NCBI GenBank assembly: GCA_973895155.1
Contig: OZ316896.1
Coordinates: forward strand, 6,376,166-6,440,165
Length of the DNA stretch: 64,000 nt
DNA from: Marsupella aquatica
Lineage: Eukaryota > Plantae > Marchantiophyta
Direction: 5' to 3'
The position numbers and the translations under genes were made by a program. This document shows positions 16,913-50,276 of the stretch, piece after piece; the stretch's first letter is position 1, and each line of letters begins with the position of its first letter. The notes beneath the pieces were generated by a model. The model searched no databases. It was not told the origin of the DNA and saw only the letters and a list, made by a program, of their open reading frames with translations.

Positions 16913-16916
16913 TAAG

Positions 16917-16934
16917 TGGCGACCATACTGGGGA
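16917..16934 (+). other. Primer binding site TGGCGACCATACTGGGGA (resembles tRNA-Arg-type PBS)
   Basis: Starts with TGG 4 nt after the LTR-terminal CA. The tRNA identity is from recollection of Tat/Ogre PBSs. Confidence 0.7.
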
Positions 16935-17029
16935 ACCGCTGGATTTTGGAGTTAGCTTGTGCATGTCTAAGTTTTGGTTGATGAAGAGAGATATGATTTT
17001 GGAACTATAAATCCTTCAATTGTGAGTAT

Positions 17030-19760: not shown

Positions 19761-22246
19761 ACAATGCGGGATGGTGGGGCGCTATCTCTGATGATGCGCT
19801 GATGGCTTGGAATGTGAATAGTTTGTTGACAAGCTCATCTGAAGGTGAAAGCTTGCATTGTCGAATTTCTTATGTGAAAGTGTGTGAAACTACTAGAAAA
19901 TTCAAAAAGAAAATTGCGAGGATTGAGGATATTATGCAAATACATGGATTGCTAGAGGAATGTGAGGAGATTGAAGACCTTCTAGATGAAGAAGGAGTGG
20001 TAGTCTCTTTGGAAGAAGTAATTGAAGGTCTTTCAGAGGGGAGAACTTTTATGGAAATCAATCATGAGTTGTATGGTGAATTGTCTCAATTTGTTGAGGT
20101 CAACACCAAGTACAAAACGGTGGACAAGAAAGTGAGACCAGCGGCACTTCCTTTGCCTTTGGATGCTAAGGAGAGTCTGGAGAAGGCAAGGAAGGAGACC
20201 AGTCTTAGAGATTGGACTAAGATTGGCCATAAATTCACAGAGGAGACCCTTAATCAACTAAGGATTGGCGATGATGGGTTGTTGACAAGGAGAGAAAGAG
20301 AGAAGTTTTGACAAATGATTGGTGAACATGGTAAAGCTTTTGCCTTTTATCCTGAAGAGATGGGATGTGTGGATCCTAGTGTAGTTACTCCTATGGTGAT
20401 TTTCACTGTCCCTCATATTCCTTGGGACTTGAAACCTATTCTGGTGCCCAAGGCTTTGTTGCCTAAACTTGTTGATCTATTGAAGGAGAAACTTTCCACT
20501 AGGATCTTGGAAAAAGCAGATGCACCTTATTCTAATCGTTGGTTTACCATTCGCAAGAAAAATGATAAACTTAGATTTATTCAGGATATGCAACCACCCA
20601 ACAAGGTTACTATTTGCAACACTAGGATAGGACCTATAGTTGATGAGTTTGTAGAAGAGTTTGCCGGTAGAGCCATCTATTCATGTGGTGACCTCTATTC
20701 AGGCTATGATCAGTTTCAGTTGGCTCAAAGTAGCAGAGATATCACTACAATGAGGACACCTTTGGGGCTACTTCGCATGTGTACTTTGCCTCAAGGAGCA
20801 ACCAATTCAGTGGCACACATGCAGAATGCCATAAATAAAATACTACATCATTTTATTCCAGAGAAGACTCAACCATTCCTTGATGATATGCCAATCAAGG
20901 GGTGCTTGGAGGCAAAGAAGGATGAGACTGTACGAGAAGATGGGTTGCGACAGTTTATATGGGAGCACATTCAGGATGTGAAGGCCATCTTGAAGAGACT
21001 GATTGAGGTTGGGCTCACTCTTTTTGGAGAAAAATCTTCATTTGGGCTCTGTGAAGTCCTGATTATGGGACAGATTTGTGGAGTTGAAAGGAGGAGGCCA
21101 AATGAAGGAAAGGTGGATGCAATCAATCAGATGAAAGATTGCAGAACATCTTTAGAGATGCAAAGATTTCTTGGTGCTTGCTTGTTTTACAGGGTTTGGA
21201 TTCCACACTTTGCACATATTGCTGATCCCTTGTATGGATTACTAAGGAAGAATGTGCAATTTGTTTGGACTGAGGCACACAAGGAGGCTATGCAAAGATT
21301 AAAGGAGGTATTACTTAGCCCCCTTCTTCTACGTCCCTTATGCTATGATGGGAGGCCAATCATTGTTACTGTCGATTCAAGCCCTGATGCTGCTGGATGG
21401 GCAGTAGGGCAAGATGATGAAGAGGGAAGGAGATTTGCATCAAGGTTTGGGGCTAAGGTCTTTTCAGCAAGACAAAGACATTATCCTCAAATCAAACGAG
21501 AATTATGGGGTGCAAGAACAACTTTGTGTCAAGAAAAGGTCTACTTGATTGGAGCACAAGTAATTCTTGAGACAGATTGTTTACCACTTTTAGGGATGAT
21601 TGCTAATTGTGATACTCAAGATATTGCTATGCTACGTTGAATAGCTTTTATAAGAATGATCAATCCTTAGCTTCGACATATTGCTAGAAAAGATAACCTT
21701 GTAGCTGATATGATGTCAAGAGCTCGATATGATCATACTGAAATATCTGAAGCAGTTCAAATAATGAGTGGAGAATTTGAGATTTTACAATTTCAAGAGG
21801 AACTGTATTCTGGACAGTTGCTTTTGATTGGGAGGTACCTTAGTACTCTTCAAAGGTCTTTTGAATTGACAGATGATGAGTTTCAGCGATTACGGAAGAA
21901 GACTTACAAGTTCATGCTGAAGGATGGTGTCTTATGGAGAAGATCTTTGAAGAAAGGACATGCTCCATGTAGAGTCCTTGATACTAAAGAGGAGAAGAAA
22001 AAGGTCTTGTGGGACTCTCATGATGCAGTTGAAGCACGACATCGAGGAGTTAGAGCTACTTATGAGCGGATTCAGAGATGGTATTGGTGGTCAGACATGT
22101 ATGTGGATGTGAAATCATATGTTGGGTCTTGTAAGACTTGCCAATATTACTCTAAAGTTTGATTTAGGGATGGGCTTAATCCTACTAGTCCTTTATCATT
22201 ACATTTTCAGTGGGCAATAGATGTGGTGCACATGCCATTGGGAGTT
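19742..22246 (+). pseudogene. pol 5' part: RT, RNase H, integrase HHCC and start of the core
   Basis: DLYSGYDQF, LPQGATNS, FLDD, VTVDSSPDAAGWAVGQ, ILETDCLPL, SHDAVEARHRG...CKTCQ, WAIDVVHMPLGV| then CACTA. Premature stops at 20309, 21638 and elsewhere. Confidence 0.93.
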
Positions 22247-22269
22247 CACTAGTAGAAACCGGGGGGTAT

Positions 22270-22580
22270 TTAGACCCCATTAAACGACTATTCAGTACCG
22301 TATAGGACTTGGAAACGACTGGGAAGGACTCTAGTCCTTTATAGGATTGCGAGTCGTATGTTTTGTTACTATAATCAACTGAGTCCTTTATAGAACTGGT
22401 TTATAAGTCGTTTAATAGACTGGATTTTCAGTCTATTTTAGTCTTTGTGTGGGTAGCTTTGGTGAGTCGTTTTTAGTCTTTTATGGGCTGCGATGATGAG
22501 TCGTTGGGAACGACTAAAAAGGTTATGGAGGGTAGTCTTTAAATATACTTTGTGGGGTATGTATAAGTCTTTTATGTCAA
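22270..22580. repeat. CACTA subterminal motif array (AGTCGTT / AACGACT variants in both orientations; also 38665-38785)
   Basis: More than a dozen short motifs next to the TIR, typical of TnpA-binding arrays. Confidence 0.7.
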
Positions 22581-23072
22581 CTGGATATGAGTGATGAAGA
22601 CCCCACTATACTACTTGGAATGAACCCACTCTTGTGCACAAATAACATATTGCATTCATGTTTTATTGTGTACTTGGAATGAACTCACTCTATAAGTTCA
22701 CCATTCATCATGTTAACATTAGAATACATAGTTTCAGAAAGCCATCTTCTATACCATGTACACTAATATGAATTCACAGATTCAAACTTCATAGACTACA
22801 AAGAAGGTCACAAAGTATTCCTCTATACCATACACACTAATACTGAAATGATAAAATAGATTCAAGTATCATAGACAATCACCATAGAGCCATAGTTTGA
22901 CATCAATCACTTGTTTCATACATACAGAATTCAGAAATATCAATGTCACACACAACGTCTCCTTCATCCTCTTTACCAAATGGAAAAATTGGTACAGATA
23001 TTTCTTGGATCTTTCCAAGGCAATGTCAAAATGTGACACAATTCACATGATGCTATCTACACTTGCATTCAG

Positions 23073-26000
23073 TCACTGCAGACTAACACACTCTGATGGC
23101 CAGAGCACAAGAGATCCTACTGCATCTGCAATTATTTCCTGAGGTGGATCATCGTCTCTATTCGGAAATGGCAAATTACAATCAGATACAATCACTGTAG
23201 TCAACAACACTACTACATGGTCATCCGGGACCACTTTGCCATGGAATTTTGCATGATCCGGTCGCAAAATGCTTGTACCCACACATACCTGCGAGTCATC
23301 CTCCCATGATAGAAGATTATGGACTGGCTCTGCTGTGGCTATCACCTCCACCTTACCCTGGCTGTTTTTCTTGGCTTTCCTGGGTGGCTTATACATGACA
23401 TTATTCATACCTTGGTTGCGAGTCATGACTTTGGCACGAGTGTTTTGTGCTGGTGATCGAGAATTGGCTACACTCTTCTTCAAAGAATCTGCATCCATAT
23501 TTGACACTTCTAATTGTGTAGCAGGATTTCCCTACGACATCATCTCAGTATCTGCCAACATTGTACTTGCTTCAATTGAAGCATCTACAATCTTACTTGC
23601 ATCCAATGTTGCTCCCAAGTTTCGACGTCGCTTCACCCTACTCCCACTTGGTTGAGAGTCTGTCAACTCTACATCAACTACAATTCAGTGTCATGTCCAA
23701 CATAAGTCAATCACTCATCACATGTGCTAAATGTACATGTCACCAACCACAAAGTTGTCACTATCTCCTTACCATTATGAACAACCTTCTTCCCCTTCTT
23801 TGCCATTGCCATATGCTCCATGTCTGCTTCTGTTGATCAATAAACACACCACAATATTCAGGTTGAATCTATTAACCACTGAATTGTTGCTCAACATTCA
23901 TATAGAGGAATTTAAAGCATCAGCTTACCTGATACCTCCTTGGCTATGGTCACTGAGGCACTGGGCACATCTTCTTCATTATTGCTCTTTGAATCACCTG
24001 ATACATCAATCATGATGTCACTTCAGATCCCAGTTCATCCAACCAGTTCTTACAGAAAAGATTACCTCCAACCGGCTTAAGCTTCACAAAACTCCATGCA
24101 CTTTTCAAATGTAATGTACTGGATCATAGCAGGTTACCTGTCTCAACAACCTTCTTGCCCTTCTGCTTACTGATTACAGGGTCCTTCTCTGCCTCCACTC
24201 TTCCTGCATTCAAACCATTCACTCAATTCATGAAAACTTACTTCTAACATTTGAACATAGGACACAATGAACAATGGGCCGGTGTCATTTCCATACCTGT
24301 GTCAGATTTGCCAATTCCCTTTTTTGTTAACAAGGGCACACTTTGTACAATGTTGCCCTCATTGTTTGGTTGGGAACCACCCAATTTTTCAATCACAAGC
24401 TTGAAATTAGATTCCACTGATGCAAGAAGGTTCGCACAGATGCCTCCACAATATCCAAACGATCAGCCAATTTACTTTCCACTCGAGGGAGTCCACACTC
24501 TAATGACTTCAACCGTTCACACATCTCTGTGAGAGTTGTAACAGTTCCCTGTCATAACACAACTTACATATCTCAGATAACTGTCCCCAAGAACTGGTTG
24601 CTTACTTCCTACTACATTTCTTTCTGATGCTCAAGGCCAAATAGTCACAGAACATACAGAATTACAACATAATCACCTGTTTGGAAGTTACACTTGTCAC
24701 CTCACTCCTTTGTTTCATGAACTCCTCTCTCACTTCTTGTGCTGATGGTTCTTCACCTGTCAATTTCTTCTGCAGTCCACATCAACATACATATGAATGA
24801 AACCAAGTGTTGATTGTCAATGAAAATGTAATAATGGTAGCAAGATGATAAGTTTGAGGCTTACTATCAGGCATGTCACTGCCTTACCAATTGTTCTTTC
24901 ACTAGAGCATAACTTCCTCTCCCAGCCTGTGAAAGGTGTTTCACTTTGCCTCGAGCATTTGACATCAGTTCACTCTTGCTCTGTCCAGCCTCCGACATGA
25001 ACCCTTTGATTAACCGTGTCCATTGATCCAGTTCCAATGATGGGGGTGGTGGCATTCTCCTGTTAGAACCATTGTCTATCCACATCCTTTTCAACCTATG
25101 CCTCTCTTGTTTCAAAATCCTCATTGCATAATCTGATATGCAATCTTCAACTGGGCCCTTACCATCATTACCAACATACTCCCACCGTTCAAGAATGTCC
25201 TTGCAGATAGCAGCCCAATTAGCTTTGTTCTGACTCCTAAACTCTGTAATGCTCAAATCTAACCAACGCAATACTTCTCCTCTTAGGTCAGAATGCCAAC
25301 GGTTCTTACCATCACATGTGGGAGTTATCCAACCTTTGGAATTCACTTCTACTTTACCAAATTTGTTACTGTCTCCTGCCTTGGTACTCCCTGAAGCGCT
25401 ACTAGGTGTCCCTCCACGGCCTGGTGTCCCCCCACGGCCTGGGGTCCCTCCACGGCCTGATCTCCCCCCACGGCCTGGATTGCATTGTCCAAACCTCCCT
25501 GGAGTCCCTGCACATTTACAGGATCCATTTACAGTCACTTACATTAGGTAAGTATGAATCATAAATCCCGCTGCCAAATATACAGTGGACTTCAAAGCAA
25601 TTCTGCAATGACCAAGTTACCTCTCCCTTGGTGCATAGATGGTTCTGGACCACCTGTCCTATTGCTTTGTCTTGATGAATTAGGGGCGTTTCTCCCGCCT
25701 GTGAATGATTGCCTCCTATCTGAACATGGATGGCCTTTGTTGTTTTCGTGATTGTCCCAATCAGAGTCTGCATACCAACAGGTACATGCCACACTCATGG
25801 ACCTATAAGATAAACTCTTTGCCCTAGCTACACATCAGATAAGTGCATATTGAGCTAAATCTCTACTACCATCACAAAATCACTAGCACAAGGCACTTAC
25901 TTGTCCAATCATCCTCCTCACCTTTCCATTGCCCTCTGTACCCGTCTCTACCACGCTCTGGGTGTTCATATTCATCCCATCCATCTTCTGCTCCATCATA

Positions 26001-26261
26001 GTCATCATCATAATTATCAGGCGTCCCTTGCCAATAACTCTGGCTCCTTCTAGGGTATGGATTATGTGATTTCTCTCTAGCTGCCCACCTACCTGGGACT
26101 TGATGAGGGCCCTGTGCATCTTGCACAGGTGCATTTTTCTGTGAGCCCCCTGCATCTGGGTCTCCATCCATATCCAATCTTTCCTCTTCACCCCACTCTC
26201 CAAGCCCCATGTCTGTCTCCATGTCATCACCCTCTTCCCCCATAGCTTCACCCACAACCAA
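23073..26261 (-). CDS. Multi-exon TnpA-like protein (Ptta/En/Spm Transposase_24-like domain and C-terminal Tnp1-like domain)
   Basis: Exon 24876-25538 has QWTRLIKGFMSEAGQSKSELMSNARGKVKHLSQAGRGSY. Last exon has FHGKVVPDDHVVV...LPFP...IADAVGSLVLWP. Acidic N-terminal exon. Exon boundaries and intactness not fully resolved. Confidence 0.75.
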
Positions 26262-26412
26262 ACAGGGAGAATCAGCACACTAAATTCAAAGTATCAATCA
26301 ATTTCATGCATATCCAACTATCCTAAACATCATTCCAGGCAGCAATTCCCGTTATGTGACTCTGTGCAGGTAGTCATCCTCAACCTCATACTTGCCAATC
26401 GCCAGCTGTTGC

Positions 26413-29400
26413 CTATTGCAAATCATCAACCTCATCATATTCCATTTGCCCAGGTTCATCATATGTCTCTCTCAATGTTAAGGGGATGTAGTCAGTCCCT
26501 GCCCGAGTTGGAAGTACAGTCTCATGACTAGGATGCTCGAATGCAGCATGGTCATCCAAACTGAACTCTACTTTACTTCCATCCATCCGCCTGTTCCGTG
26601 CTTGGCTATGGCATACCACCCTCCAGCCATGTGACTCCTCCACATCTGCAAAGAAAGCCTGTTCAACTTGGCTAGGGAAAACAAAAGGCTCAGACCATTC
26701 TGGTACTCTGGACCTAAAATTGGCCAACAAGAACCCATCATGATCACGCTTCATGGTGGCCCTTGGTCTCTGCCACTCTGATTTCACCCATGATCCCTTC
26801 ATCAATATCACTAGGACACTTGTGTTACCATAATTCAACACCCAAATGTCGGTCAACTCCCCCACGTAACCCATCTTCATCCACCCCCTCTGTTCTTCAG
26901 AGGTTCTCTGCTCAAACACAGAAATCAAACCACAATCATATGATACACAATGGTCACCCTGCTCATCCCTCACTCGATAATGATTTCCATAAGCTCTCAT
27001 CCGTTTGTAGGTCAGAATAGACAATCGTGGTGGCACAGATAGAAGATACAAATCCTTCTCCATATCTGGGTGATGTCTACTATGCTCTCGAATTGTCACC
27101 CGAATCCACTGCTCGAACTGTGGGAAGGGATCCTGCTGCCCAGAGTGTGCAACTTTTTGCATATCATATTCCCTGCATTATGAGGTACAGGCATAGTTAG
27201 GTCTAAACAACACATGACAACCTAAGATCACCCTTGGAACAGACAAGAAGCATCACAACAAAGGCAAGTCAATTCAATCACTCACCTCCACCATGGTTGC
27301 ATAGGCTCTGTGTTTGCCAGCACATATGAATGAGCCTTGTCTCGAATCGCAACAGGCAGCTGAACAGCACGTCCCACACCTTCAACAACCTCGCCACTCA
27401 CTCCATCATCTTCACCAGATTTCCAAACTCTTGTCATAGCTTCACCAGACCCAGCCATGTACTCTGTTAGGAATCCCAACGTCTCATCCTTAATGTACCC
27501 CAATGCCATGGAAGCCTCTGGCCTGTAGTATGTTCTCACATGACCTTTCAACAACTTCATGTATCGCTCCATAGGGTACATCCATCTGGTACTGACTGGC
27601 CCATACTGCCCTAGCTCTTCTACCACATGGATTAGGAGATGAGTCATAACATCAAAGAAAGCAGGGGGGAAGTATATCTCCAAGTCACAGAGGACATAAG
27701 CAGCATCCTGCTTCAACTGCTCCAATCCTTGGGGATCCCACACTTTCACACATATACGGCGAAATACATTGCACAGTCGAAGAATGACATTACGGACTGG
27801 TTTCTGCATGAGACCTCTGAGGCATAGGGGCAGAATGTGCTGCATCAACACATGGTAGTCATGTGTTTTCATACTGCCAAGTTTATTCTTTGTAATATGC
27901 TTCTTGAAGGCACCAGCATAGCCAGAGGGCACTTTCAGACAGCTCAATCTATACAAGAATGTCTTCCATTCATCCTGTGTGCACACATAGGGAGCTTGGA
28001 ACTTGAGAAGTACATTGGGATTGCTTGCATGGGGCTTCAACCAAAGGTGAGGGCGAATCCCCTTCTATTGCATATCAGCTCGAACTGCTCCTGTATCTTT
28101 CTCACCCGACAAGAACTTCAGCAAGCTCTCACAAATATTTTTCTCAATGTGCATGACGTCCACATTGTGTTTGCTGGGCTCGAATTCCTGCACTCCACAA
28201 AGCAAAGAATTCAACAACAGAAACACTAATTAACCACATAGGAGGATTGTAACCAACATCAATCCACCATTGCTCCAATCTAAAATTGCAATCATACAGG
28301 GGCTGGAGGCTAAGTACATTACCCTCCAGTACTCCAACTCCAAGTCCATCAAGGTCTGTCTTTTCACACCGTGTTTCACCACTGGATCCTCAGGTTCTCG
28401 ATCAGTGGCACTTCTCTTGTCCCAATCAGCCTTCCTGGCTGCCCACCTCAGGACTTGCTCTCTGGTGACCCTCTGTGGTGGGCCACGAAGCTCTATTTTG
28501 TTGTTGAAGTGTGCAATTTGAGACCGTGTGTGCCTGTAAGGATGATCAACAGGCAGATACCTTCTATGCCCCTGAAATTTCATACTATGCAGGGCATGCG
28601 ACCACTCACTTGTCACATTTTTCCCACATGGTGTGCACCCCACATAGCCCTTTGTCACTCGTCCAGATATGATGCCATGGCCTGGGTAATCTGCTATATC
28701 CAGCAAACAAATTGCATGCAGTCTAAAGGGGCTGGGTCGAAGAAGCCCCTTCAGAACATCATGGGTTAACACCCCTTCTATCCACAAAGTCTTCCACTCT
28801 TCCACTGCTGGAGCCAACATGATATCTATGAATTGCTCGGTCACAGAAGCTGGTCCAAGGATTAACAGCACCATCATGACAAAAAACCTCTTTGTAGTCA
28901 TCCATGGGGGAAGGTTGTAATTTAGCAGCGTAACCGGCCAACATGAATAACGGTTGTTTTTGTCTCCAAATGGGTTTACTCCATCCAGTGATAGACCAAA
29001 TCGAAAGTTCCGCTTCTCTACAGCAAACTGTGGCCACCTCTCATCAACAAATTTCCAATGGTTGGAATCTCCAATGTGACGTTGCAGGCCATCACTGCTC
29101 TTGTTATCAGGAGTCCATGTCATCAGCTTGAAAATGGCAGGGCATCTAAACAGACGTTGTAGTCTAGGAATGAGAGGAAAATGACGAAGAACCTTGGCAG
29201 GGTGTGTACATTTCCCTACATTCTTGTACCTATGCTTACCACAATGAGGGCATGTCAATTTATCTGCATGCTCTTTGCGAAAGAGAACACACCCATCAGG
29301 GCATGCGTCAATAGACACATAGTTCAGCCCAAGGTTAGACATCAATTTCCTAGCCTCGTACATATTTTTTGGAATTGAATTACCATCTGGTAACACATTT

Positions 29401-30113
29401 CGGCGCAGGAAGGTCAACAACTCTGTCACAAATATATTGGGAACATTGTGATTGCCACAGATGTTCAACAACAACACGACAAAACCCAGCTTGGAGCAGT
29501 TCGACCCCTCGTAGATAGGAATGCAAGCTTCTTTGATGTGTTTTGGGCCCCCAAACACCCACTCCCTCTCTGCTGCACCTTCCCCAATGTCAAAGTCAGG
29601 TTGAGCTTGGCCGTCGCCAATGTGTGGCTGCGGTTCATTGTCCTCTTCTGATTCCACTGTGTCGTAAAAAGCATCAAGGTCTTCAAAAATCTCTTGAACC
29701 ATTCTTGGGACATCCATCCCACCGTCCTCAGTGATTGCCTCTGCATCTCCATCTTGGTCATCCACGTTCTCATGTTGGACCCCAGGACCATCCTCTGCAC
29801 AATCTATGTCCTGCTCTACGTAGTCTCTACGCCTAGCTGTATTAGAATCCACAAAGTCAGCTCTCCACTCTTCATCAGAGGAGTCTTCTTCTGCTGGTAC
29901 ATTCCAAACCCTCCACCGAGGGTGCCTTTCATGCCGCAACAGGTGAAGGTGCACAGTGTTCAAACTCAACGACTTGAATCCTTGGCACTGTGTGCATGGG
30001 CATCTCATCCTCCTACTCCTACCTTGGGCGGCCCGGGCTTGTTCACGCATCCACAATTTAGAATCATGATGCCTAATCCTAAATGGGTTGTGAAGAGGCA
30101 ACCTTGGAGCCAT
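26413..30113 (-). pseudogene. CACTA TnpD/Tnp2 transposase (Transposase_21, DUF4218, DUF4216); 3 exons, one premature stop
   Basis: Exons ~30113-28323, 28187-27286 and 27173-26413 with GT-AG ends. Motifs MRCPCTQC, IDACPDGC, LSLDGVNPF, DIADYPG, HNVDVMHIEKNICE, MKTHDYH, RWMYPMERY, EPFVFPSQVEQAFF. In-frame TAG at 28065-28067. Confidence 0.93.
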
Positions 30114-30439
30114 CACTATACACACGCACTCAGCACCCTGTCATTTTATTATGCAAGTGAAAAATACACTTCCTGTTAAGGATTTCACCCCCGACTGTAC
30201 TTGCCAAAATACGTAACGTTCCAAAAAAACAAAAAAACAAAAAATATAGGTGCCTGAGTCATGTACCTATTCTCAAGTGAATGAGACAAAATTCCTAAAT
30301 GTTTGAGGGTGTCAACTCCTCCGCTGTCCTCACATGTACTGCCTCTGCACGTACATCCATGACCATATCAGAGTCCAATCATGTATAGTCATAGACACAG
30401 GTGCCAGGTGCGAGACCGGTGTGAGATGTCCTCATCTTA

Positions 30440-31009
30440 CTACCACATCAAATACGGATACCAATCCTGTTGTCGATGCCACTCAGCCCTGAGGTACTCA
30501 GGCATGTACATTAAGTCATCAAGGTCTAAACCCTGCTCATGCCATGGTGGTCTTCGATCCGTGCCTACAAGCAGTGGCAGCAGTGCCCTCCATGGTGCAC
30601 ATGTTGCTACCAAGTCCCTCCACTAGGTACTAATTAGTCTATATTTGCAGATATCTTGTGCGCCAGACACCACAAGAACCCTCGGCCAGACATGTGTAAG
30701 AACTATATCATCTGCCAAATCAGGCAACAAGGAACCACCTACAGCATCGTGCTTGTCTAACTCATCTGCTGAAAAGTAAATGTCCTCTTCCGACTGTGCA
30801 TCCTCATTCACCACAGCATTCACAACACATCCAAGGTCTGCAGGCATTATCTCGGATGGAGCTACACTCTGTCTGGTTACCAATCCACACAAGTAAGCCC
30901 AAGCAGTAGCCATGCACGATGCAACCCGTAGGAGGACCCTACATAGGGCCTGACGGTCTGGAAGAGGCAGCATACCCACCAAAGTCTTCAGCCAAACAGA
31001 GCCCAGCAA
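30440..31009 (-). pseudogene. F-box-like protein carried by the CACTA (one in-frame TAG at 30623-30625)
   Basis: SLLPDLADDIVLTHVWPRV...ICKYRLIST*WRDLV matches the F-box pattern LPxLPDD...L..VSxxWRxL. The frame continues 60 codons past the stop. Start codon uncertain. Confidence 0.65.
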
Positions 31010-31149
31010 GTAGATTCACAGTCACACCCCACGCAGCAGGAAACAACAATCACTTCAACTGCGACCAACCATGACAAGATGAGTTAGTTCAAGGATCACA
31101 TTTATTACAAAATTGTGTTTTATACAAAAATATGAAGGACTCCTACTCC

Positions 31150-31998
31150 TCACTCTCTCCCACCTTTGCTAAGCATACATCTCCGCTGAATCTTGGAGGG
31201 CCAGGCCTCAAAAATATCAAAGTCCCAAGCATTCTGTCGCTTCCCTCTAGCTGCTGATTCTAGAAGCCAATCAGGGGAAAGCACCCAAAGATTGTTGTTC
31301 ATGACAAAATCACGCACTGTTGTCTTAAAGAATTTTCTACATATTTTCATGTATGACAGACCTACAACATGAGTGGAGGTTTCTGTTAGACTCTCCTCCA
31401 CTGTCCCACCTAGCTCAACAACTATAGACTTGTACAGTCTGCACTTAGTCTCCCCAATTCCTTCTTCTGCAAATACCACACTGAACCCCTTCATAATGGT
31501 ATTTCTCTCCTTGCCATGCTCATTCAATATAGCATCTGCACGCATAGGATGGTGTCCTATGTTGACAACAGGTCCATATTGGACAGAAGCAAAGTTGGGT
31601 TTCTCTGCCGCTGCTTCATAGGCTTCCTTTTCAGCCAAAGCCTCTGCAGTGGCCTCCTCACTCTCCCACAACTCATATTGCTCAGTACTCTGTACACACC
31701 TATGTTTAACAGAATCGGTCAGCCAAGAGACTTCAACTACTTTTAGACCTTGGTTGGTAATGGCAGAATCAATGAAGGACCATGACCACTTGTTCATCAC
31801 ATCCAGCCATGTCCCCGCAACAACATGTGTAGTCTGTGGAGTGATGTCCTTGACTTCAGTCCCATGGAACTCTGAGAATCGTTTTTGTACGATTGGCCAA
31901 CTCACTTGGGTGAACCCATAGTGGCCAGGAATCAAAATGGCTTTGATTCCAGCCAACAGAGGCGGGTGGTCAACCTTTGTACGTTTCCTAGAGGCCAT
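31150..31998 (-). CDS. Intronless tandem-BRCT protein (~282 aa) carried by the CACTA
   Basis: Two BRCT signatures: TTHVVA...VVEVSWLTDSVK...YEL and LGGTVEESLTETSTHVV...VLSPDWLLES. Basic N-terminus RKRTK. TATAAAT ~80 bp upstream. Confidence 0.85.
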   Translation of the reverse strand: MASRKRTKVDHPPLLAGIKAILIPGHYGFTQVSWPIVQKRFSEFHGTEVKDITPQTTHVVAGTWLDVMNKWSWSFIDSAITNQGLKVVEVSWLTDSVKHRCVQSTEQYELWESEEATAEALAEKEAYEAAAEKPNFASVQYGPVVNIGHHPMRADAILNEHGKERNTIMKGFSVVFAEEGIGETKCRLYKSIVVELGGTVEESLTETSTHVVGLSYMKICRKFFKTTVRDFVMNNNLWVLSPDWLLESAARGKRQNAWDFDIFEAWPSKIQRRCMLSKGGRE

Positions 31999-32586
31999 GT
32001 ACACACGGGCCACCTAATCACTGCAGACCGGAAGATAATGCGTTCACCTGATAATCGGAGGGCCCTTAAAATGCTGCATTTATAACTTGGTCCAGTCCAG
32101 TCATCTGGTGAGTCTCTGCTCCGATTCCAAACGGGAGAAATATTGGGACAAACGTACTAGACACCTGCAAGCATGCACCTCATAGTTTGAATATGTGCCT
32201 TCACAATATTGAAGGTGACAAGTGCAATTGTTTTGTGATGCCACATACAGATGTTGTAAATGGGCAGACATTCAATGAGAATACAAAATGTTGGTACACT
32301 TTAAGGGAATTCTCGCAAATTAAATAGCCTTGTAACTTATATGCTCATAATGAGAAGTCCTGATTTAATTTAAGCAGTGTCATGTAAGTCGTGATCAAAA
32401 TGATTGCAGAGTTAAAAAAGTTCCTAGAAGGCTTAAGGGCAGTTTTTGAAGGCATGTACCCAGGAACAAGTAATGAACTTAGGGTACTTGTTGCCTAAGC
32501 ATCCTCTCCTACAGAGGTCCTTCTTCTCAAAATTGGAATGTCTGCAATCTCCAAGGTATCCACATCAGGTGCACTATGCATGTATA

Positions 32587-33276
32587 TTATTCAGGTTCAA
32601 AGCCAAGAGTGTGATCTCTCATGGGAGTGTGCAAAGTAGGATCTATGGCATGGCGATGACAATAGAAGATCCATTGATCAACACCATGTGCAGAGTGATC
32701 ATAGATGTGTCTGTCACAAGCATAGCCTTCTGCTTGACGCTCCTTCAAACAATGAAAGTGCCACATGGTGGGACACCTAACACAGTGGACTATGTCCACC
32801 CAGAAATCTTCATCGTGCTGACCACATGCCTTGCACTTATGAAGTGGGCAAGCTGTGGCAAGATCGGGCAAATATGAAAAACAAAAGAACCTCACACAAT
32901 ATCTGTCAGGGCATTTCCTAACAAGTGGTGGAGCATCAACAGAGCCCTCATAAGACCCCAACTTCCCACACTGTGCACACTTAGCCTGCTTCTCCAAACA
33001 ATCAGTGCACATCCAGCCTCCCTGGTGTGCTGACGGGAGGCCCACCCCTGGACAGTTGTTTTCTGCAGCAAGGTCAGACTCCGGGTTGAGGTGGAAATGC
33101 CTCATGCAAGGGCCCTCACATATGGCTAAGCCACCACCATCGTCACAAATGGCACAACAATGAGCTGCCTTCTGGAAAATCTGACTTGCGGAGAAGTTAC
33201 TACCATCTGGCCCAACTACACCTGTGTTGCTCACCTCTGTCCCCCGCTTCTTGGCTCGGATTTTAGGGCGTGCCAT
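32587..33276 (-). CDS. Intronless stand-alone EDM2-like PHD-finger protein (229 aa) carried by the CACTA
   Basis: CAICDDGG...CEGPCMRHFH...CTDC...CAQCGKLGS...CPLHKCKAC...CVRCPTMWHFHC...IFYCHRHAIDPTLHTPMRDH follows, as I recall it, the EDM2 PHD region (CPLHKC...CRRCP.SYH..C...IYC..HEID..L.TP.RDH). N-terminal basic patch. Confidence 0.85.
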   Translation of the reverse strand: MARPKIRAKKRGTEVSNTGVVGPDGSNFSASQIFQKAAHCCAICDDGGGLAICEGPCMRHFHLNPESDLAAENNCPGVGLPSAHQGGWMCTDCLEKQAKCAQCGKLGSYEGSVDAPPLVRKCPDRYCVRFFCFSYLPDLATACPLHKCKACGQHDEDFWVDIVHCVRCPTMWHFHCLKERQAEGYACDRHIYDHSAHGVDQWIFYCHRHAIDPTLHTPMRDHTLGFEPE

Positions 33277-33945
33277 GCCTACGCATGAGACAGATAGTAC
33301 AATTTAGCAGAGTGCACGGACAATACAATTTAGTGCAGTGTACAAAAAGTACAGTGTAGCATATAGACTAGAGTGGTAATTGCTACTGCAATGAAATGTT
33401 CACACACATGTGCAGAGTAGACATACTTTTTGGTTTGTTGAGCCCACACTAAAAACTGATCCCCTCGTACAATAGCTCCACCTACACCTCAATTTTATGG
33501 CTATGATTCACCAAAGGAGATCTGCAACAAGATTTAATGCATTTGAATCACATATAACAGTCGTGACATGTAAAACATGCATTTTTTGAACAGGATTGGT
33601 ATCAAGCAGTGTGATCAGGGTTGTAATTTATACATCCTAAATAGGCTATGATAGTGAATGAGACAAATAAGTTAGGCATAAATCACTTTTTCCAGGTTAT
33701 CACATGGCCCATTAATTCCAGTCTTTGAAAGGAGACTTTTAAGTGAGCGTGCTAGCCTCTTAAATTAGGATATTGTACTTAGTGCAGCCATAATAGGATA
33801 AGTTATGTACTGTTGACCCTAAACCCTGGACCCAAAATTGGTCATAATTCAAAATCTTAAGTAAATATCCTCTCTGTTCAAGTCAAAGTGTTAAGTTATA
33901 GGTCAATGGTCTCTGGTTTGTGCATGCGGTGTGACAAGTGGTCCT

Positions 33946-34395
33946 CTAGAGCGTGTGATCCAAACATGTGTAGACACCAAAGTGACCGGTGGTGGGGTCT
34001 GGGAGGGCAGGACAAGTGACATCGCCAGGCACACTACAGGATGGCGAGTGGTTCCAGATGATACATTGTGCTCTATGAAAAAACCGACATCCAAGAGAAC
34101 GGTCATCCAACTCTAGGCCAGAAGCCCTACAAGCAGGACAGTCATATTGGCAACTGTGCACACACCCTTGGGCCCTAATTTGTGGCGGGTCATGTACAAG
34201 AGACAGAAATACCAAGGATGTTGGGAAGGGTGGAGAAGCAGGTACAGGCCGGTTGTAGTTGTTCCTGGCAACAACTGGGTACTCAAAGTACCATGCAGAC
34301 TGGGCTGGAAGGATCCCAAGTCTGACATACTCAAGGCGCAACATCTCTGCCTTGCGTGCAAGCCGCACATGTTCAGCGTTGCGGGTCCTCACCAT
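33946..34395 (-). CDS. Hypothetical Cys/His-rich protein (149 aa) inside the CACTA
   Basis: ATG-started open frame (MVRTR...) on the same strand as the other cargo, with CVHSCQYDCPAC...CRFFHRAQC. No family recognised. Confidence 0.35.
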   Translation of the reverse strand: MVRTRNAEHVRLARKAEMLRLEYVRLGILPAQSAWYFEYPVVARNNYNRPVPASPPFPTSLVFLSLVHDPPQIRAQGCVHSCQYDCPACRASGLELDDRSLGCRFFHRAQCIIWNHSPSCSVPGDVTCPALPDPTTGHFGVYTCLDHTL

Positions 34396-35774
34396 AAGTG
34401 TTGCTTTTGTGGAGATGTCGTGTGTTCACGTCCTCTGATAAGCACCTTCGATCAGCAAGGTGAGCAGGAGCTGTACTTGCCTCACCAACAGCAACCAACC
34501 TTAAATTATCAGTTCCCACTCACTGTGTCATTCCATTGGTTCCAGCTAGGGGTCACAGTGTAAACAGAGCATGAAACACTCCTAATCAACTTGCTTACAA
34601 ACTACAATATCCAGAAAGAGTGAAAGTCTCACCCTCCAGTGAGCAGCAGAGAGGTAGTTCACTAGATGTGTTGATGTGCAGTTAAACCTCCACTATTGCT
34701 TACTTCTGGTGTATGCTGCTCAGAAGAAGACATATTAGTAGCAGCAAATTGCAAATAATGGCCATAAGCAAACCGTGAGAGTTTGCAGAATGCTACGACA
34801 AATCCATCACAGCAGTGCTCCACAGGAATGAAACCAAGCAAAATTTGGTGACCTCGGCCAATGACAAGGCCAATGTAGTGAACAATCCTTGACCGATCAG
34901 GATATGGATTGGAATTACAATTAGTCAGCTCTTCTTCTTTGTTTTCTAACTCTGGGGGAAATGAGCATGACCAGGGAATTCTCTGAGAAATAGAAGTGCA
35001 CAGGGAAAATGAAATTGGCTCATTCAGCTGCGCAAGACCGACCATTGCAGCATACTTGGACAGTTGTTCCGCAATACACTAGTATGACAGGAACTCAAGG
35101 AAACATTTGTGGCAATGTCTTCACAGGAAAAGAAGAATCGCTAAGTACAGTATTCTTAATAGTAGTTTCATTCTAATTCTGAAATCTACACATAGGATGG
35201 AAACCCAGGACATTTCTCATGAAAATTGAAGATCCATTCAACAACTCCATGATAGCCTATTCCGCATTGTGTCCGTCCCATGCAAGCGAGGGGTGTTCAG
35301 CCGAGCTTAGTCTAACCACGAATGATTGTTCTGGAAGCAATTGCGACAATGTTTTGGTAATTTTCTCCTACCCAACTCAATAGCTCACAAACATGGCATT
35401 GGACCCATTAACAAATTATACTTGCCATCATTCTCAACTGTATTACATGGCCCACACTGCTGATGTCCCTGACTCTTAAGGGAAACTCATCTCCTGGGCC
35501 AGCAACATCTCAGATTCTACAAAAATAAGAAACTATGAAGACTTATTGAAGTCATATCCTGTGATTGTAGCATGTATGATTCACTGGGACTGCAAGCAGT
35601 TCTAGATCCTGCTGCACTTTATATACAGCAGCAACCTGAGCTCCATGAACTTGTTTTTAATAGACGTGCGTTTGACCATGGCTACAACTCCAAAACAATC
35701 AGTCATCCAATCAAATCATAACAAAACCCACCCGCAAGCTGAATGTAGAGGATAGAGACAGAGAAAATCACCGG

Positions 35775-36014
35775 GGCAATGAAGTCGGATCACAGGGTGC
35801 GAAACTAGTACTCAACAGGGTAAGACCGATCACAGCAAACAAAGCACGGAGCTAGACCACCAAAACTCCAGCAAGACAGTGTCGTGTCCATTTATTTGTA
35901 GGGAATGAAGTCGGATCACAGAGTGTAAAACTAGTACTCAGTAGGGTAAGACAGATCACAACAAACAAAGCTAACACAACAAAGCACATAGAGGAGCAAA
36001 ACTCCAGCAAGACA
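35775..36014 (+). repeat. Diverged ~125-bp tandem duplication
   Basis: AATGAAGTCGGATCACAG...AAACTAGTACTCA...AAAACTCCAGCAAGACA occurs twice. Confidence 0.8.
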
Positions 36015-38819
36015 TAAATCAGACCTCGCAGCCTTTTGACTAGCAAAGGGAGATAGTCTACGCTTTCCATTGCTGGTCACAGCGCGACGGGCAATCAGGA
36101 TGATGCCATGCCGAGTAGAAGAACAACAAAGCATTCTATAAAAAGCACTGAGGTTGGCGTTATAGTAAAAGTGGTAGTACTTCTAGTAGCGCGACCAACT
36201 CGCTAAGTGACAGTCCGGAGTAGCTTACCTCCGAGAAGAAAGCCAGAGCAGTTTAGCAGAAATCCCCAAGAAAATCCCCACTCTGAAGATGGTAAGCTTG
36301 CAGCTGCTCCCCCGGGTGCTCCCCTCAACCTCGCCACTTCTATTCTGAGCAGCGCAGGTCCTCTCCACCCTCTCACCTTGCACCTCCTGAACAGGTGACC
36401 AGCACTATCCACTCCCACCGCAACTGTGGACGGTCCCTAAAAAAATGCAGATGACAGCGACCAATAGACAAAGGATTACATGCGTAGACCTGGCAGAAAT
36501 CTTCAGTGCAATGCTTGACTAAGCTGACCAGTATTTCTCAATAGGGTACCAAAAGCCACAGACAATACAAAAGGCAGTGACAAGCACAGGCGGTGGCAAC
36601 TAGCAAAGGCAGTGGCAAGCAAGCAATCAATGATGATAGCGGCAATCGGCAATGGCGGTGGGAGGCAGCAATAGGAATCACCTGAATGAAGTACCAATCC
36701 GCAGCGGGAGGGAATGTCAACCTTCTTGTCAATTGCAGACCACCTCCGACCTCAAGGTCTCCCTCACGTCAACACCTAAAATGTAAGTGATGACCCAATG
36801 TATCCTCCCTGATCGCAGCTCGTCCCCGCCCGCAGCTCGTCCCCACCCGCAGCTTCTCCCCGCATTGAGGTCCTCCTCGACCACAGCTCTTGCAGCTGCT
36901 AGGCCCAGCCTTTGATGGCCTTCTGCAATGTTTGCAGACAATGTCGCCTCCCTTTAAGCAGCTTGCCTTCCGTAGCAGTAGAAATCACCTATGCTCGAGC
37001 AACTTGAATGAAGTCACAACAATGGGAGCAGGCGGCGACGGGACTGTCAGCTCTCAAGCGCAACCTTCACAGCTCACTAACATTGCAGGACTGTAAAAAA
37101 TGACCGGTTCACGTTGTTACCGTAGCATCCCTGGCACACCAAATCCTTTGTCTCTAATTCCACCAACCAAGCGTTCGATGGTTGACAATGTGCAGCTGAG
37201 CTAGGAGAAGAACTGAATGATTGTGGCTGCTCTTCTCTGCAGTCCAAGCACCCGGCTGGCAGCTCCGCAAACCCTGATCGTAGCTGCAATCTCTACTCCG
37301 TTGATTGAAGAGCCTCCCTCTTCAAAGCTTGGTTGACCTAGCTCTACAATTGACGGAGCTTATCATCCTTTGCATCAAAAACCCTCCACCACCCGACCTT
37401 CCGCGTACTTCAGGAAGCTCCTTACCACCAAGCGCTTCTCGGGGATGCCTCGCAACAATGTCCTTACCACCTAACGACTCTCAAGGCTCTCCCAAACCAA
37501 TGCAAACCCCTTGCAATCTAATACACTATGTCCAAACAGAGGCAGAACTGTCAAAAGCGCTCGCAGTAGTGGACGCAGCAATGTGAAGTGAATGAGCTCC
37601 GACCTTCCCTCGCAAAATGCTTACCCTAAACTCTGCTCGTATGCTAAACTCACAAACATTCCGCAGGTCGTTCTGTCGCAAAGCACAAATGATGGGGCCC
37701 AAACGCATGGGGCGCGGACACTCGATACTTCCCTTCACAAAAACCCAGTTTCATACGATGACCAAAGCATACTCACCCTAACCCAAGACTTAGTGCAAAC
37801 AGGACCCTAAACGCTAATCCAGGGCCCGTTTCCGTTGAGTTGAGCCGTTATGCTTGATAAGTCATGGCCAGAGTCTTGATGTAGGGGAACAATGTGGACT
37901 TAATTAGGCAACAAATGAGTACATTTGGGTGAGGGTAAAGGATAACTTTAAATAAATCCCTTTGGTGACAAAGATGAGGCCACTTAATCAGTTGTGCCCC
38001 ACCCTAACCCCCCCCCCCTCCGGGCCCCCCTCATGGAATTACCTCTATCAAAAGTACCCTAAGTTATGAAAAGTACCCGTTACATGGACCTGTTTTGAGA
38101 GTTGAAAGATAATCAGAAGTAAAGGGACCATGGAGAAGAGGGGGCCAATGTAATTAAGTCAAGCATCACTCATTCAAAATCCACATGGACATAGTTGGGT
38201 ACTATATGAGACACCAGGGGACAAGACATTTTTGAAGGGTTGGCATATTTACCCTCATCCCTAAACTTGGATGTCTTGCACATAACATCCACTCTCCTAC
38301 CCCAAGTACAAAACAACTCCTAACAACTTAGGCCCAATGTAGTCACTTGTGCCCAACCATGTTCATTAAGAGCCTAAATGTTTTCATTTCACCCACATTG
38401 CATGTTGTTGGGGGTTCCATGGTCTGTTATTATAATGTAACTCCTCATGTGAACTTTGTGAAATTTAGTATTTAAGGGACCATGGAGAAAGTAGGCCAAT
38501 GGAGTAATTGGAACCATGAACCTTTTTGGTCACAAATAAGGCCATCTAATGAGTTATGCCCCTTGCTATCACCATCTTTATAGAATTAACCCTCTTCAAC
38601 ATAAGTGATCATTACCCATGTAGTGCTAGACTATTCACCGTTCACAAAGTAGCAAGGACCCTTCTCATAGTCATTTAGAGAACCATATAACACTAATAGT
38701 CTTTTATAGTTTTCAACAAAACCGACACAATGAGAGCGAGTCGTTTCAAGTATGGAAAAAGGACTTAGTGGGCTTAGTCCTATAAGGTATGGTCTAAATG
38801 GCCCCGGTTTCTACTAGTG

Positions 38820-39679
38820 GTTAGAGGAGCAAAGTACCTTGTCCTTGCAAGAGAAGATTTATCTTCTTATGTGAAAGAAAGAGCTTTGACCTCTAATACT
38901 ACTGAAGCAGTATGCAGGTTTGTACTTGAAGATATCATTGCACGTCACGGTTATTTTGTGCAAATGAGAGCAGATAGAGGAGAACTCAATTTGGATGAGG
39001 CTGCGGATTTCTTTGATCGATTCAACATCAAGCTCAAACTTACTACTGCCTACAACCCGGAAGGCAATGGGAAGATTGAGCGAGGGCACCCACCGATTGT
39101 AAATGCCTTGGTAAAGTCTTGCCAAGGAAAAGCATCAATGTGGCTAAACCTTTTATCGTTTGCTCTTTTAGCAGATTGGATGACATGCACTTCAACAACA
39201 GGATTTGCACCTATCAAATTGGTCTGTGGATATTTACCTTTAATGCAAATTGAAGAGAATGTTCAAAGTTGGAGAACAATTGATTGGAAAGATGACATCA
39301 CTCGAGAGGAATTATTGGAACGAAGGATTGAGCACTTTAGCCAGACCAAGGAGAAATTGAGGAGGCTTTACTAAGGCTAAAAAAGGCTCGTGAGAAGAAT
39401 AAGGAGCAATTTGATAAGACTCATCGTCTGAGGCCAATTCCAATCCAGAGTGGAGATTGGGTATTGATCTATGAAGCAGGACTTGAGCAACAATATTCTA
39501 CCTTAAAAAAGTTTGCACGTCATTGGAGAGGACCATTTGTTGTTGAAAAAGTCAATCCTAATGCAACCTACTTGGTTAGAGAACTGGATGGAGCGATTCA
39601 TCGCACTCCCTATGCAGGAAAGCGAGTGAAATTGTTCAAGCGGCGAACTCACTTTATGGCAAAAGAGAAAAAGTTTTGA
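38820..39679 (+). pseudogene. pol 3' part: integrase core and GPY/F module, no chromodomain
   Basis: LAREDLS, RADRGEL, AYNPEGNGKIERGH, WRGPFVVEKV...TYLVRELDG. Confidence 0.92.
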
Positions 39680-39774
39680 ACTAGATGACTTTGAAGCTTT
39701 GGATGAGGATGAAGATTATCATGATCTATAGGTGTGGTGCATCCGGAGGTTGCACAGGTTTGGTAGGGGTGATA

Positions 39775-41046
39775 TATCATAATAATTCAATTATTCATGA
39801 TGAAATCATTATCACTAAGTATATTATTTAGTATATAGGTTAAGTTTATATTTTGTTACGGGGTAACTAAATAGTTTGACTATTACTTATGTGCATGCAA
39901 GGTGAGCAAATGTGCAAGCCACAAGGTGCATGCACAAATTGTTTTAGGTGCATGCAAATTATTTTATTTGCATGCATTAGTTGTTTTATGTACATGCAAG
40001 GTGAGCAAATGTGCAAGCCACAAGGTGCATGCACAAATTATTTTAGATGCATGCAAATTGTTTTATGCGCATGCATTAGTTGTTTTATGCGCATGCAAGG
40101 TGAGCAAATGTGCAAGCCACAAAGTGCATGCATGCACAAATTGTTTTAGGTGCATGCATTAGTTGTTTTACTTGCATGCATTATTTGTTTTGATTACAAT
40201 AGTACTAGCACACATTCCTACGTTGGATGTGTGACACTTGGCTTTTATCCAAGCGTGTGGGCGTAATCCATGCCCTCTTGGATTCAATATAAATAAAGTG
40301 GTGAGGGGCACTCTCGCCTCATTCTCACATTTTTGATCATTTCCACGTCAAAGCGATCCTCTTTTTTTCTCTCATCTTTCTCTTCTATTCTTTGCCTTAT
40401 GTATATAGTAGTGGGGTATCCTTTGGCCCAAATAGCAAAAGAATGAGTGGTAGACTTATAGATGGGACCTTAGGAAACAAGGTCTCTTTGGGAACTTAAG
40501 GGTGGGACATCCTTTGGCCCGGATAGCAAAGAAACAAGAGAGTCATTATGAATCCAGGAGGGAGAGATATTCCTAATCTTCCCCTTCGTAACCCATTTTT
40601 GGTTAGAGTTGATCTTTTAGACAAGCCATCCATGAGACAACATATAACTTATCAATTTGGAGCTCAATTTGCAGCTGCTGTTATGAGTTCTAATGAGCCA
40701 ATAGTATACCCAGTAGTGTCTTACCGAGAGGAGTGGGAGTGCATTATCTTTGTCCTTTATTGAAGTCATGGATCTAAATAGGAGTCCAGATGACATTCCT
40801 ATTTTATTTTCTCTTGGAAATATTAGGATTGTATGTCGTAGAAAAATTAATTTTCGAGATGTGTTGATCCGCAAGTATGGTGAAGTATGATTTAATAGTA
40901 TATTAGTTTCACCTAAACCTTTCTTAATACCCACCACCCTTCTTACAAGAGTTATCATTTTAATTTTAGTGTAGAACTTATGGGCATGCAAGATTAACTT
41001 CATAAGAGCCAACATGCTCTTACCAAAAAACACGGTCACCCGGACA
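39775..41046 (+). repeat. 3' LTR, preceded by a degenerate PPT (GGTAGGGGTGA)
   Basis: Aligns with 15654-16912. The start TATCATA is TGTCGTG with G>A changes. Ends CCCGGACA followed by TSD CCGG. Confidence 0.93.
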
Positions 41047-44404: not shown

Positions 44405-44602
44405 TGTTGTAAACCCTAGTTTACCCCTTAACCATAGGGCGAGAACCCTTAACCATAGTATGAGAACTCCTAACCATAGGACCAGTATAAGGGCATTTGC
44501 CTACCATGTAACCAAGGGGATATATATATCCCCTCATCAATAGTAATGGATCTTATCTTGTTGGAGTATCTTTGAGCGTTCCTTTAGTTGTCTATTACAA
44601 CA
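44405..44602 (+). repeat. Copia 5' LTR
   Basis: TGTTGTAAACCCTAG...TATTACAACA. Confidence 0.97.
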
Positions 44603-50078: not shown

Positions 50079-50276
50079 TGTTGTAAACCCTAGTTTACCC
50101 CTTAACCATAGGGCGAGAACCCTTAACCATAGTATGAGAACTCCTAACCATAGGACCAGTATAAGGGCATTTGCCTACCATGTAACCAAGGGGATATATA
50201 TATCCCCTCATCAATAGTAATGGATCTTATCTTGTTGGAGTATCTTTGAGCGTTCCTTTAGTTGTCTATTACAACA
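50079..50276 (+). repeat. Copia 3' LTR
   Basis: Identical to 44405-44602 and followed by ATAAC. Confidence 0.97.

Follow-up and report, generated by a model that had tools for sequence, protein, structure and literature searches.

The VANC proteins of VANDAL Mu-like elements recognise DNA motifs and have been shown by experiment to induce hypomethylation, and a host domain, Ulp1, has been captured by some VANC copies (PMC5735166, PMC13317346). On the host side, EDM2 binds H3K9me2 and alters transposon silencing (PMC7529245, PMC3632883); its loss releases one transposon from repression and represses another (PMC3632883), and it keeps proximal polyadenylation suppressed at sites in heterochromatin (PMC7529245). 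The H3TM definition, iM-Z-R-X-K, is fitted by 48 of about 21,000 human proteins (PMC8166343). Pack-CACTA elements are described as non-autonomous carriers of chromosomal fragments (PMC6379663), and in the animal element Rehavkus the transposase itself contains PHD fingers (PMC6446971).

Here we describe a CACTA element of the liverwort Marsupella aquatica that resembles each of these in part. In common with VANC/KIU elements, it is a plant DNA transposon with an accessory gene proposed to act on the chromatin of its own family; it differs in belonging to another superfamily, and in that the candidate, known from sequence alone, combines an H3-like arm with a histone-reader cassette. A Pfam search of the four cargo ORFs detected no VANC domain. 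As in Pack-CACTA elements, host-derived sequence is enclosed by CACTA ends, but TnpD and a TnpA-like region are kept. Rehavkus, too, is a DNA transposon encoding a PHD finger, within its transposase, whereas the element described here has a separate triple-PHD gene.

The element and its insertion site

The window, by which we mean the whole 64,000-nt stretch analysed (GCA_973895155.1, contig OZ316896.1, forward strand 6,376,166 to 6,440,165), contains the following backbone features.

15661..41046, plus strand: host Gypsy LTR retroelement, its integrase interrupted by the CACTA element
22244..22246, plus strand: left target-site duplication, sequence GTT
22247..38819: CACTA element, bounded by inverted repeats and GTT/GTT
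22247..22264, plus strand: left (3') TIR, CACTA-type, perfect over 18 nt
23073..26279, minus strand: TnpA-like region of several exons, 3' of TnpD, best piece 24876-25538
26413..30113, minus strand: TnpD transposase, predicted exons 28323-30113, 27286-28187 and 26413-27172 (Pfam and splice model)
35312..38281, no strand assigned: variable 5' internal segment without long ORFs, of low depth compared with the rest of the element
38802..38819, minus strand: right (5') TIR, matching 22247..22264
38820..38822, plus strand: right target-site duplication, sequence GTT

The sequence-only reading had called this CACTA structurally complete, and its termini and transposase bear this out. The TIRs are identical over 18 nt and begin with CACTA, short subterminal repeats follow the left TIR as far as about 22515, and GTT on both flanks is the 3-bp target-site duplication of CACTA (En/Spm) elements. 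With the CACTA removed, the integrase frame of the Gypsy element (LTRs at about 15661-16912 and 39782-41046, with 5.5% mismatch between them) reads through, and the reconstructed empty-site joint, 22243 to 38820/38821, was found in three of the four public runs compared. The window around the insertion consists of repeats only. TnpD matches Transposase_21 (E 1e-58), DUF4218 (E 2e-27) and DUF4216 in Pfam; its splice model has two GT-AG introns of 135 and 113 nt and 1150 codons, with a single internal TAG (28065-28067) in the window copy. It is the TnpA of the earlier account that is less secure, being a Transposase_24 match below the Pfam cut-off (E 0.017) and otherwise placed by its position 3' of TnpD. 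A search of 22000-39000 against Rfam gave no matches.

In run X1 the segment between the cargo and the 5' end (35.3-38.3 kb, ∼3 kb) has roughly one ninth of the depth of the backbone, and other copies carry internal deletions within it. The CACTA in the window belongs to a multi-copy family and has decayed.

The triple-PHD protein and its N-terminal arm

Four cargo ORFs lie between TnpD and this variable segment, all on the TnpD strand, as first described. They are probably intronless, judging from their unbroken frames and from homologues of the same length.

30440..30973, minus strand: F-box-like ORF, 177 codons, one TAG (30623-30625) in the window copy
31150..31998, minus strand: two-BRCT protein, 282 aa, basic NLS-like start, Pfam BRCT E 6.5e-14 in two stretches
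32587..33276, minus strand: stand-alone EDM2/NSD-type triple-PHD protein, 229 aa (Pfam, homologues and tree)
33247..33276, minus strand: N-terminal arm of the PHD protein, like H3 (1-9), pattern M-A-R-x-K-x-x-A-[KR]-K
33946..34395, minus strand: Cys/His-rich orphan ORF, 149 aa, without a family match

The PHD gene had been read as EDM2-type, and it does encode the NSD-type triple PHD cassette that EDM2 and EDM2-like proteins share; what that reading overlooked is the H3-like N-terminus. The protein belongs to a family of stand-alone proteins of ∼220-245 aa that forms a separate clade (support 100/100) on a long stem. Its identity to the nearest host-type EDM2-like protein is 32-37%, and it is at most 37% identical to any of 94 host-type proteins, all from outside the host's own genome. 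The cargo proteins and short liverwort EDM2-like proteins fall on one side of a branch with support of only 55/66. Ten near-full family members, 36-79% identical to the window protein, keep 23-25 of the 26 host Cys/His columns, and intact members keep 25 of these metal-ligand columns. The window ORF, previously taken as intact, is indeed open but damaged: a conserved ligand Cys is changed to Tyr at 32873, and at 32607 a single base is missing when compared with the X1, X2 and X5 contigs, which alters the last codons, where homologues terminate in HISWL.

EDM2 and EDM2-like proteins are 600-1800 aa long, as against about 230 aa in the cargo, which has neither a match to the DNMT1-RFD nor the long C-terminal region. 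The host proteins also have an acidic stretch ahead of PHD1 (mean 4.2 D/E per 10 residues, compared with 0.9 in the cargo family), in place of which the cargo carries a basic, H3-like arm. The AlphaFold model of the PHD protein is poor (mean pLDDT 40.6).

The pattern R-x-K-x-x-A-[RK]-[RK] is conserved across the PHD family in the register of histone H3. Among 18 unselected N-termini aligned with H3 residues 1-9, R2 is present in 16, K4 in 16 and A7 in 13; Ser10 of H3 is not retained. H3 1-9 scores above all 93,328 host 9-mers, including all 3,092 basic ones, and when its letters are permuted only 7 of the 22,680 arrangements equal or beat it. In a PDB search with a profile of the arm, built from 11 N-termini chosen for the motif, the sole match was H3 1-10 (a weak E of 0.95), while the same search with the single sequence found nothing. 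From its predicted start, the window protein fits iM-Z-R-X-K as the human H3TMs do. It differs from those host proteins in that the match reaches A7 and K9, is fused to PHD fingers, is borne by a transposon and is a putative mimic. It is important to note that M-x-R-x-K occurs in only 7 of the 18 family N-termini, at residue 1 in 6 of these, and that in the other PHD subgroup the motif is internal rather than N-terminal. Furthermore, three short host-type EDM2-like proteins also start M-A-R-x-K; therefore basic nuclear-import tails can yield part of the pattern.

Histone mimicry is known from viruses. Our preferred reading, which we hold tentatively and at somewhat less than even confidence, is that the triple-PHD protein with its H3-like start works against host silencing, both docking on chromatin and serving as a decoy for the H3 tail. 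The cargo genes would be expressed together with TnpD, and removal of the initiator Met would expose Ala-Arg-x-Lys as a free end. Like EDM2, the PHD cassette would bind H3 tails, and the arm would compete for readers or writers of H3K4/K9, or alternatively occupy the protein's own PHD until displaced by a true H3 tail. Either way, H3K9me2/CHG silencing would be lowered on family members, with the BRCT, F-box-like and Cys/His genes as further helpers. Since loss of EDM2 acts in opposite directions on two transposons, the effect of the cargo could have either sign. The fuller version, in which a transposon lineage built an anti-silencing protein against H3K9/CHG silencing from an H3 tail mimic and a captured EDM2-type reader, together with three maintained helpers, we consider doubtful.

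A maintained PHD protein, perhaps with the BRCT protein, might instead tether the transpososome to marked nucleosomes, steering insertion into heterochromatin rather than lifting silencing. The copy in the window did insert into a Gypsy element among repeats, a cassette lacking the RFD and C-terminal parts of EDM2 might be adaptor-like, and Rehavkus offers a precedent for PHD fingers in a transposase. This is one insertion site, however, the contact with TnpD is a predicted one, and steering leaves the conserved H3-like arm unexplained; we think it unlikely.

Copies of the family and selection on the cargo

In run X1, median depth is 2488 for the backbone, 4264 for the cargo and 1838 at the right end, compared with 215-496 over the flanking Gypsy element, although depth is not copy number. 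The depth of X1 contigs is level across the left end, transposase and cargo, and diverged variants map onto the element in several runs. Long X1 pieces differ from the window at 26 of 4728 nt of backbone and 2 of 1075 nt of cargo. The family is young, and at least one run contains it in abundance. A Pack-CACTA identity is ruled out by TnpD being present at family depth and, as far as those 94 host-type proteins go, the PHD cargo is no recent host fragment. Neither PHD-alignment nor TnpD loci were found in scans of metagenome, prokaryote-genome and viral contigs.

Among the cargo coding variants listed, 15 of 29 changes are silent, where 22-27% would be expected (p 0.0004-0.005), and in the orphan ORF 8 of 13 listed are silent. 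The best 40 of 498 variant rows give a pN/pS for the cargo of 0.26-0.35, an estimate that pools private decay with differences between lineages, and within these rows the excess of silent changes does not reach significance for the PHD gene alone or the BRCT gene alone. Of 12 indels among the rows listed, 10 fall in spacers, although spacers account for just 41% of the stretch; the remaining two are net +3 nt. In CpG depletion and GC3 the cargo resembles TnpD, consistent with a long stay in a methylated element. Purifying selection on the cargo is supported by these partial data.

The cargo is in many copies and not in this one only, its pN/pS, from those best 40 of 498 rows, is about 0.3 rather than 1, and the PHD protein, in its own clade, is far from a near-identical host fragment. 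Because none of these three contrary outcomes was found, we conclude that maintained accessory genes, as the sequence-only reading had proposed, are likely. The cargo appears to be old, compact and common to copies, unlike that of Pack elements.

These data also bear on another account, in which the genes were captured long ago as passengers, selection on them is weak or past, they have no present role for the element, and the arm serves nuclear import. Broken members are frequent in the PHD family (the PHD3 end is missing in 10 of 17 short ones), a 43-nt deletion in the F-box-like ORF makes up a minority of X2 depth and about half of X5 depth, and the M-A-R-x-K start is shared with other short EDM2-like proteins. 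Such passengers would not be expected to keep their metal ligands in full-length ORFs at 36-50% identity, nor to show the excess of silent changes among listed cargo variants, nor to fix the R2/K4/A7 spacing beyond what composition gives, making us sceptical of this account, to which we give slightly less credence than to steered insertion.

The companion genes

En/Spm elements use one promoter with alternative splicing. The PHD protein could act in RNA processing, like EDM2: if it suppressed early polyadenylation, a long transcript begun at the 5' end could cross H3K9me2-marked DNA and extend to TnpD and TnpA. The genes are co-oriented, the start of TnpD lies 8.7 kb in from the 5' end, and a TAG 5 nt upstream of both the PHD and TnpD start codons is a candidate splice acceptor. 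Yet the BRCT and F-box-like ORFs each have a TATA-like box of their own, and most of EDM2 is absent from the cargo protein; we regard this explanation as improbable.

The sequence-only reading had the tandem BRCT engaging break repair. The BRCT fold stands: the best PDB profile match is to DNA ligase 4 (E 0.006), followed by BRCA1 (E 0.05), and the homologue P0007 is 62% identical. The two repeats, at 24% mutual identity and separated by a long linker, look like an internal duplication. The BRCA1 phosphopeptide positions, which we take to be Ser/Thr-Gly and Lys in the first repeat, do not stand, since Ser and Lys there align (at low score) with Tyr/Phe and Ser in the cargo, and a BRCA1-type pocket was not found in these alignments. 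An Atlas search returned generic BRCT clusters only, under 0.9, and the AlphaFold model is poor (mean pLDDT 32.9).

The sequence-only reading also had a host factor degraded via SCF. The F-box match in Pfam is below the cut-off of 20.5 bits both in the window ORF (E 0.21, 12 bits) and in its homologue P0166 (best E 0.0034, 17.7 bits), where it spans most of the model; a match to FBXW11 is weak (E 0.72). A conserved segment lies downstream of the motif, no recognisable substrate-binding domain was found in the ORF, and some copies carry the 43-nt deletion. The homologues P0165 and P0166 (54% identity) have Gln or His at the site of the window TAG. Support is weak for the SCF step, as it is for the repair hijack.

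The orphan ORF had no match in Pfam, PDB or Atlas, and its identity as a degenerate PHD was unsupported, profile comparison with the PHD family having given nothing.

An integrated toolkit, in which PHD reads marks, the BRCT pair recruits break repair via phosphopeptides and the F-box degrades a host factor, can point to the ligase 4 and BRCA1 matches and to the P0166 match with its conserved segment, but the unmatched Ser/Lys positions, the apparent duplication with its long linker, and an F-box under cut-off without a known substrate domain leave it as improbable as the RNA-processing account.

Significance

Our literature search found no report of a CACTA superfamily element that carries a chromatin reader with an H3-like tail, and the H3-like N-terminus of the PHD protein is new here. 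VANC works via DNA motifs; a transposon-borne reader with an H3-like tail, if true, would be a second, histone-side route to anti-silencing. A protein of 230 aa with a 10-residue arm is an experimentally simple target and, given a young family that is plentiful in at least one run, intact copies should be easily cloned. It would also mean, if true, that autonomous CACTAs can retain multi-gene cargo over the long term, and do not just shuffle fragments.

Structure and surroundings of the element

The insertion target of the CACTA element is the integrase of a Gypsy retrotransposon, whose frame is continuous once the element is skipped. Of the four public sequencing runs whose contigs were aligned to the window, three (X1, X2 and X5) carry the empty-site joint 22243 -> 38820/38821. 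The LTRs of the host Gypsy mismatch at 69 of 1244 columns; the CACTA insertion can be no older than this divergence implies. All element genes lie on the minus strand, the order from the 5' end being a variable segment of ~3 kb, orphan, PHD, BRCT, F-box-like, TnpD and TnpA-like.

Features of the CACTA element (window positions)
22247-38819: CACTA element, 16,573 nt; 18-nt perfect inverted repeat beginning CACTA, GTT flanking both ends
33946-34395, minus: orphan ORF
32587-33276, minus: PHD ORF
31150-31998, minus: BRCT ORF
30440-30973, minus: F-box-like ORF
start 30113, minus: TnpD; two predicted GT-AG introns, 1150 codons, one stop
last in gene order, minus: TnpA-like region; weak Pfam match

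Three 18-nt repeats in the TnpA-like region (25405-25476) encode Gly-Arg-Gly-Gly-Thr-Pro units. The variable segment (35312-38281) contains a ~126-nt spaced duplication (35775-36014) and has about one-ninth of the backbone depth in X1 and far less in X2; other sequence appears to occupy this position in most family members. Elsewhere in the window, a Copia element (44405-50276) whose gag-pol frame is open over 1575 aa and whose 198-nt paired repeats are 100% identical is, by its sequence, a very recent insertion. Nested inverted repeats within a LINE-like region form a long, imperfect hairpin that resembles a MITE or foldback element (4706-5240), and a 19-nt tandem array adjoins another Gypsy LTR-like copy, the third (9291-9487 and 9498-10289).

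Distribution and probable maintenance of the cargo

Part of the cargo stretch is present in 11 of 13 listed runs, four of which contain half or more of its words. In X1, which is not independent of the window and may be close to its source, depth stays roughly level, with medians of 2488 for the backbone (left end, TnpA and TnpD), 4264 for the cargo and 1838 at the right end, against 282 for the variable segment and 215-496 for the flanking Gypsy sequence; depth here gives no copy number, and no single contig piece crosses the whole element. Compared with the window, long X1 pieces (depth 1770-2070) show 0.55% difference in the backbone (26/4728 nt) and 0.19% in the cargo (2/1075 nt), and one joins the TnpD start to most of the spacer toward the F-box-like ORF. 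X2 and X5 hold many variants, down to 80-90% identity, across all four ORFs and the spacers. The cargo is not confined to this copy; in our reading, the family amplified recently and its transposase and cargo move as a unit. In a further run, X6, high depth is limited to the conserved PHD1 (32892-33179) and TnpD (27000-29400) cores and the rest is low, which hints at abundant but more distant families that have both genes, in putative linkage.

The sequence-only reading had proposed a maintained toolkit. Three ORFs contain 29 of the best-supported 40 variant rows (of 498); 15 of these changes are silent and 14 replace an amino acid, where a silent share of 22-27% is expected (pN/pS 0.26-0.35, p 0.0004-0.005). 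The pooled result favours constraint; within these best 40 of 498 only the orphan is significant singly (8/13 silent), BRCT (4/8) and PHD (3/8) are not, and the F-box-like ORF has no variant row. Spacers hold 10 of the 12 listed indel rows (12 of 39). Counter to constraint, X2 (as a minor variant) and X5 carry a 43-nt deletion within the F-box-like ORF. We consider it probable that selection maintains the cargo.

Homologue searches, restricted to proteins near query length, gave five PHD matches at 41-80%, one BRCT match at 62%, and two F-box-like matches at 54%, in which Gln or His stands in place of the stop codon of the window copy. The predicted tandem BRCT stands, the two repeats being 24% identical to one another, with DNA ligase 4 and BRCA1 the closest structural relatives by sequence (weak E-values); the residues of the BRCA1 phosphoserine pocket are unmatched in the alignment. 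The F-box-like motif is a weak match that stays below the Pfam cut-off. The orphan, most of whose 8 Cys and 8 His lie in the C-terminal half, has no family match in Pfam, PDB, Atlas or profile comparison with the PHD family.

The PHD protein and its H3-like arm

A PHD profile search returned 411 proteins at E<=0.001, short contig-derived proteins ranking first, then long proteins that combine a DNMT1-RFD with NSD-type PHDs, including one named EDM2-like and liverwort paralogues; the EDM2-type identity proposed earlier is thereby confirmed. In trees (quick, 137 regions; careful, 36) the short proteins form a group (9 rows, 100/100) that includes no host-type protein. Because they form this separate clade, reach at best 32-37% identity to any of 94 long proteins, and keep 23-25 of 26 Cys/His columns in 10 members, the short proteins are, on sequence criteria, an old compact family and not a recent or near-identical host fragment, the host's own EDM2 paralogues lying outside the comparison. 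Of 17 short members, 10 are cut short or go out of frame ahead of the PHD3 end, as expected of transposon copies in decay or of sequences at the edge of a contig. Damage is present in the window copy too: a ligand is lost at 32873, and compared with X1, X2 and X5 one base is missing at 32607. An F-[ST]-x-x-E motif that the cargo family has ahead of PHD1 recurs, among 101 host-type proteins, only in P0017 and P0159 (named Calypogeia fissa), a weak hint of a liverwort-type donor. Proteins P0042, P0057 and P0067 represent a further clade, distinct from this one, of short EDM2-like proteins that lack an RFD.

The window protein begins M-A-R-x-K-x-x-A-K-K, an H3-like arm that the earlier reading had not recognised and that we propose as a new feature of this protein. 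Regular expression yielded 19 family N-termini, one of them a duplicate; across the other 18, aligned with plain MAFFT, the H3 R2 and K4 positions are each kept in 16/18 (Arg, Lys), A7 is Ala in 13/18, and K9 is Lys in 10/18 and Arg in 3/18, while the linker behind is unconserved. A strict pattern, defined after the alignment was seen and with H3 in mind, occurs in 7/19 N-termini (shuffle p <= 0.0012 each) and in none of 100 long proteins (first 45 residues). With a scoring matrix of the 18, H3 1-9 outranks all 93,328 host 9-mers and all but 7 of its 22,680 permutations; a profile of 11 hand-picked N-termini has one match among 177,635 PDB sequences, histone H3 1-10 (E 0.95). The H3 N-terminal mimic definition (start iM-Z-R-X-K), as excerpted from PMC8166343, fits the window protein and 7/18 members. 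Ser10 is not kept, the motif lies a few residues inside the N-terminus in half of the family, and M-A-R-x-K also starts three unrelated proteins, of the P0042 clade. The orphan's M-V-R-T-R start and internal A-R-K-A motif are a fainter echo of the H3 tail.

Putative function

In the portions of PMC7529245 and PMC3632883 consulted, EDM2 binds chromatin marked with H3K9me2, represses the use of proximal polyadenylation sites, and can push transposon silencing either way. The transposon would keep only the reader cassette of an EDM2-type protein and add the H3-like arm; most simply, though tentatively, the product may dock on chromatin and act there as a decoy for the readers and writers of H3 tails. 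That the PHD protein instead targets insertion is unlikely, and slightly less likely still are neutral passengers, for which the arm can be a basic import signal and which the pooled pN/pS opposes. A poly(A) read-through role, recalling EDM2, is improbable, and equally so is the repair-plus-SCF toolkit as main role, given the BRCT and F-box results.

The sections consulted of PMC13317346, PMC6446971, PMC11738798, PMC5735166 and PMC6379663 do not describe this cargo. In the full texts searched, mostly without subscription journals and without Repbase, the passages retrieved mention no CACTA cargo of PHD, BRCT and F-box; those on H3 mimics, including parts of one review, give no transposon-encoded case with an anti-silencing role; and nothing was found on CACTA in Marchantia or Riccia in a search of full texts mostly without subscription journals. 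Our conclusion is that the CACTA family is real and its accessory genes are probably maintained, a variant among accessory-gene-bearing plant transposons, and that the protein joining a reader to an H3 mimic, of putative function, stands out most.
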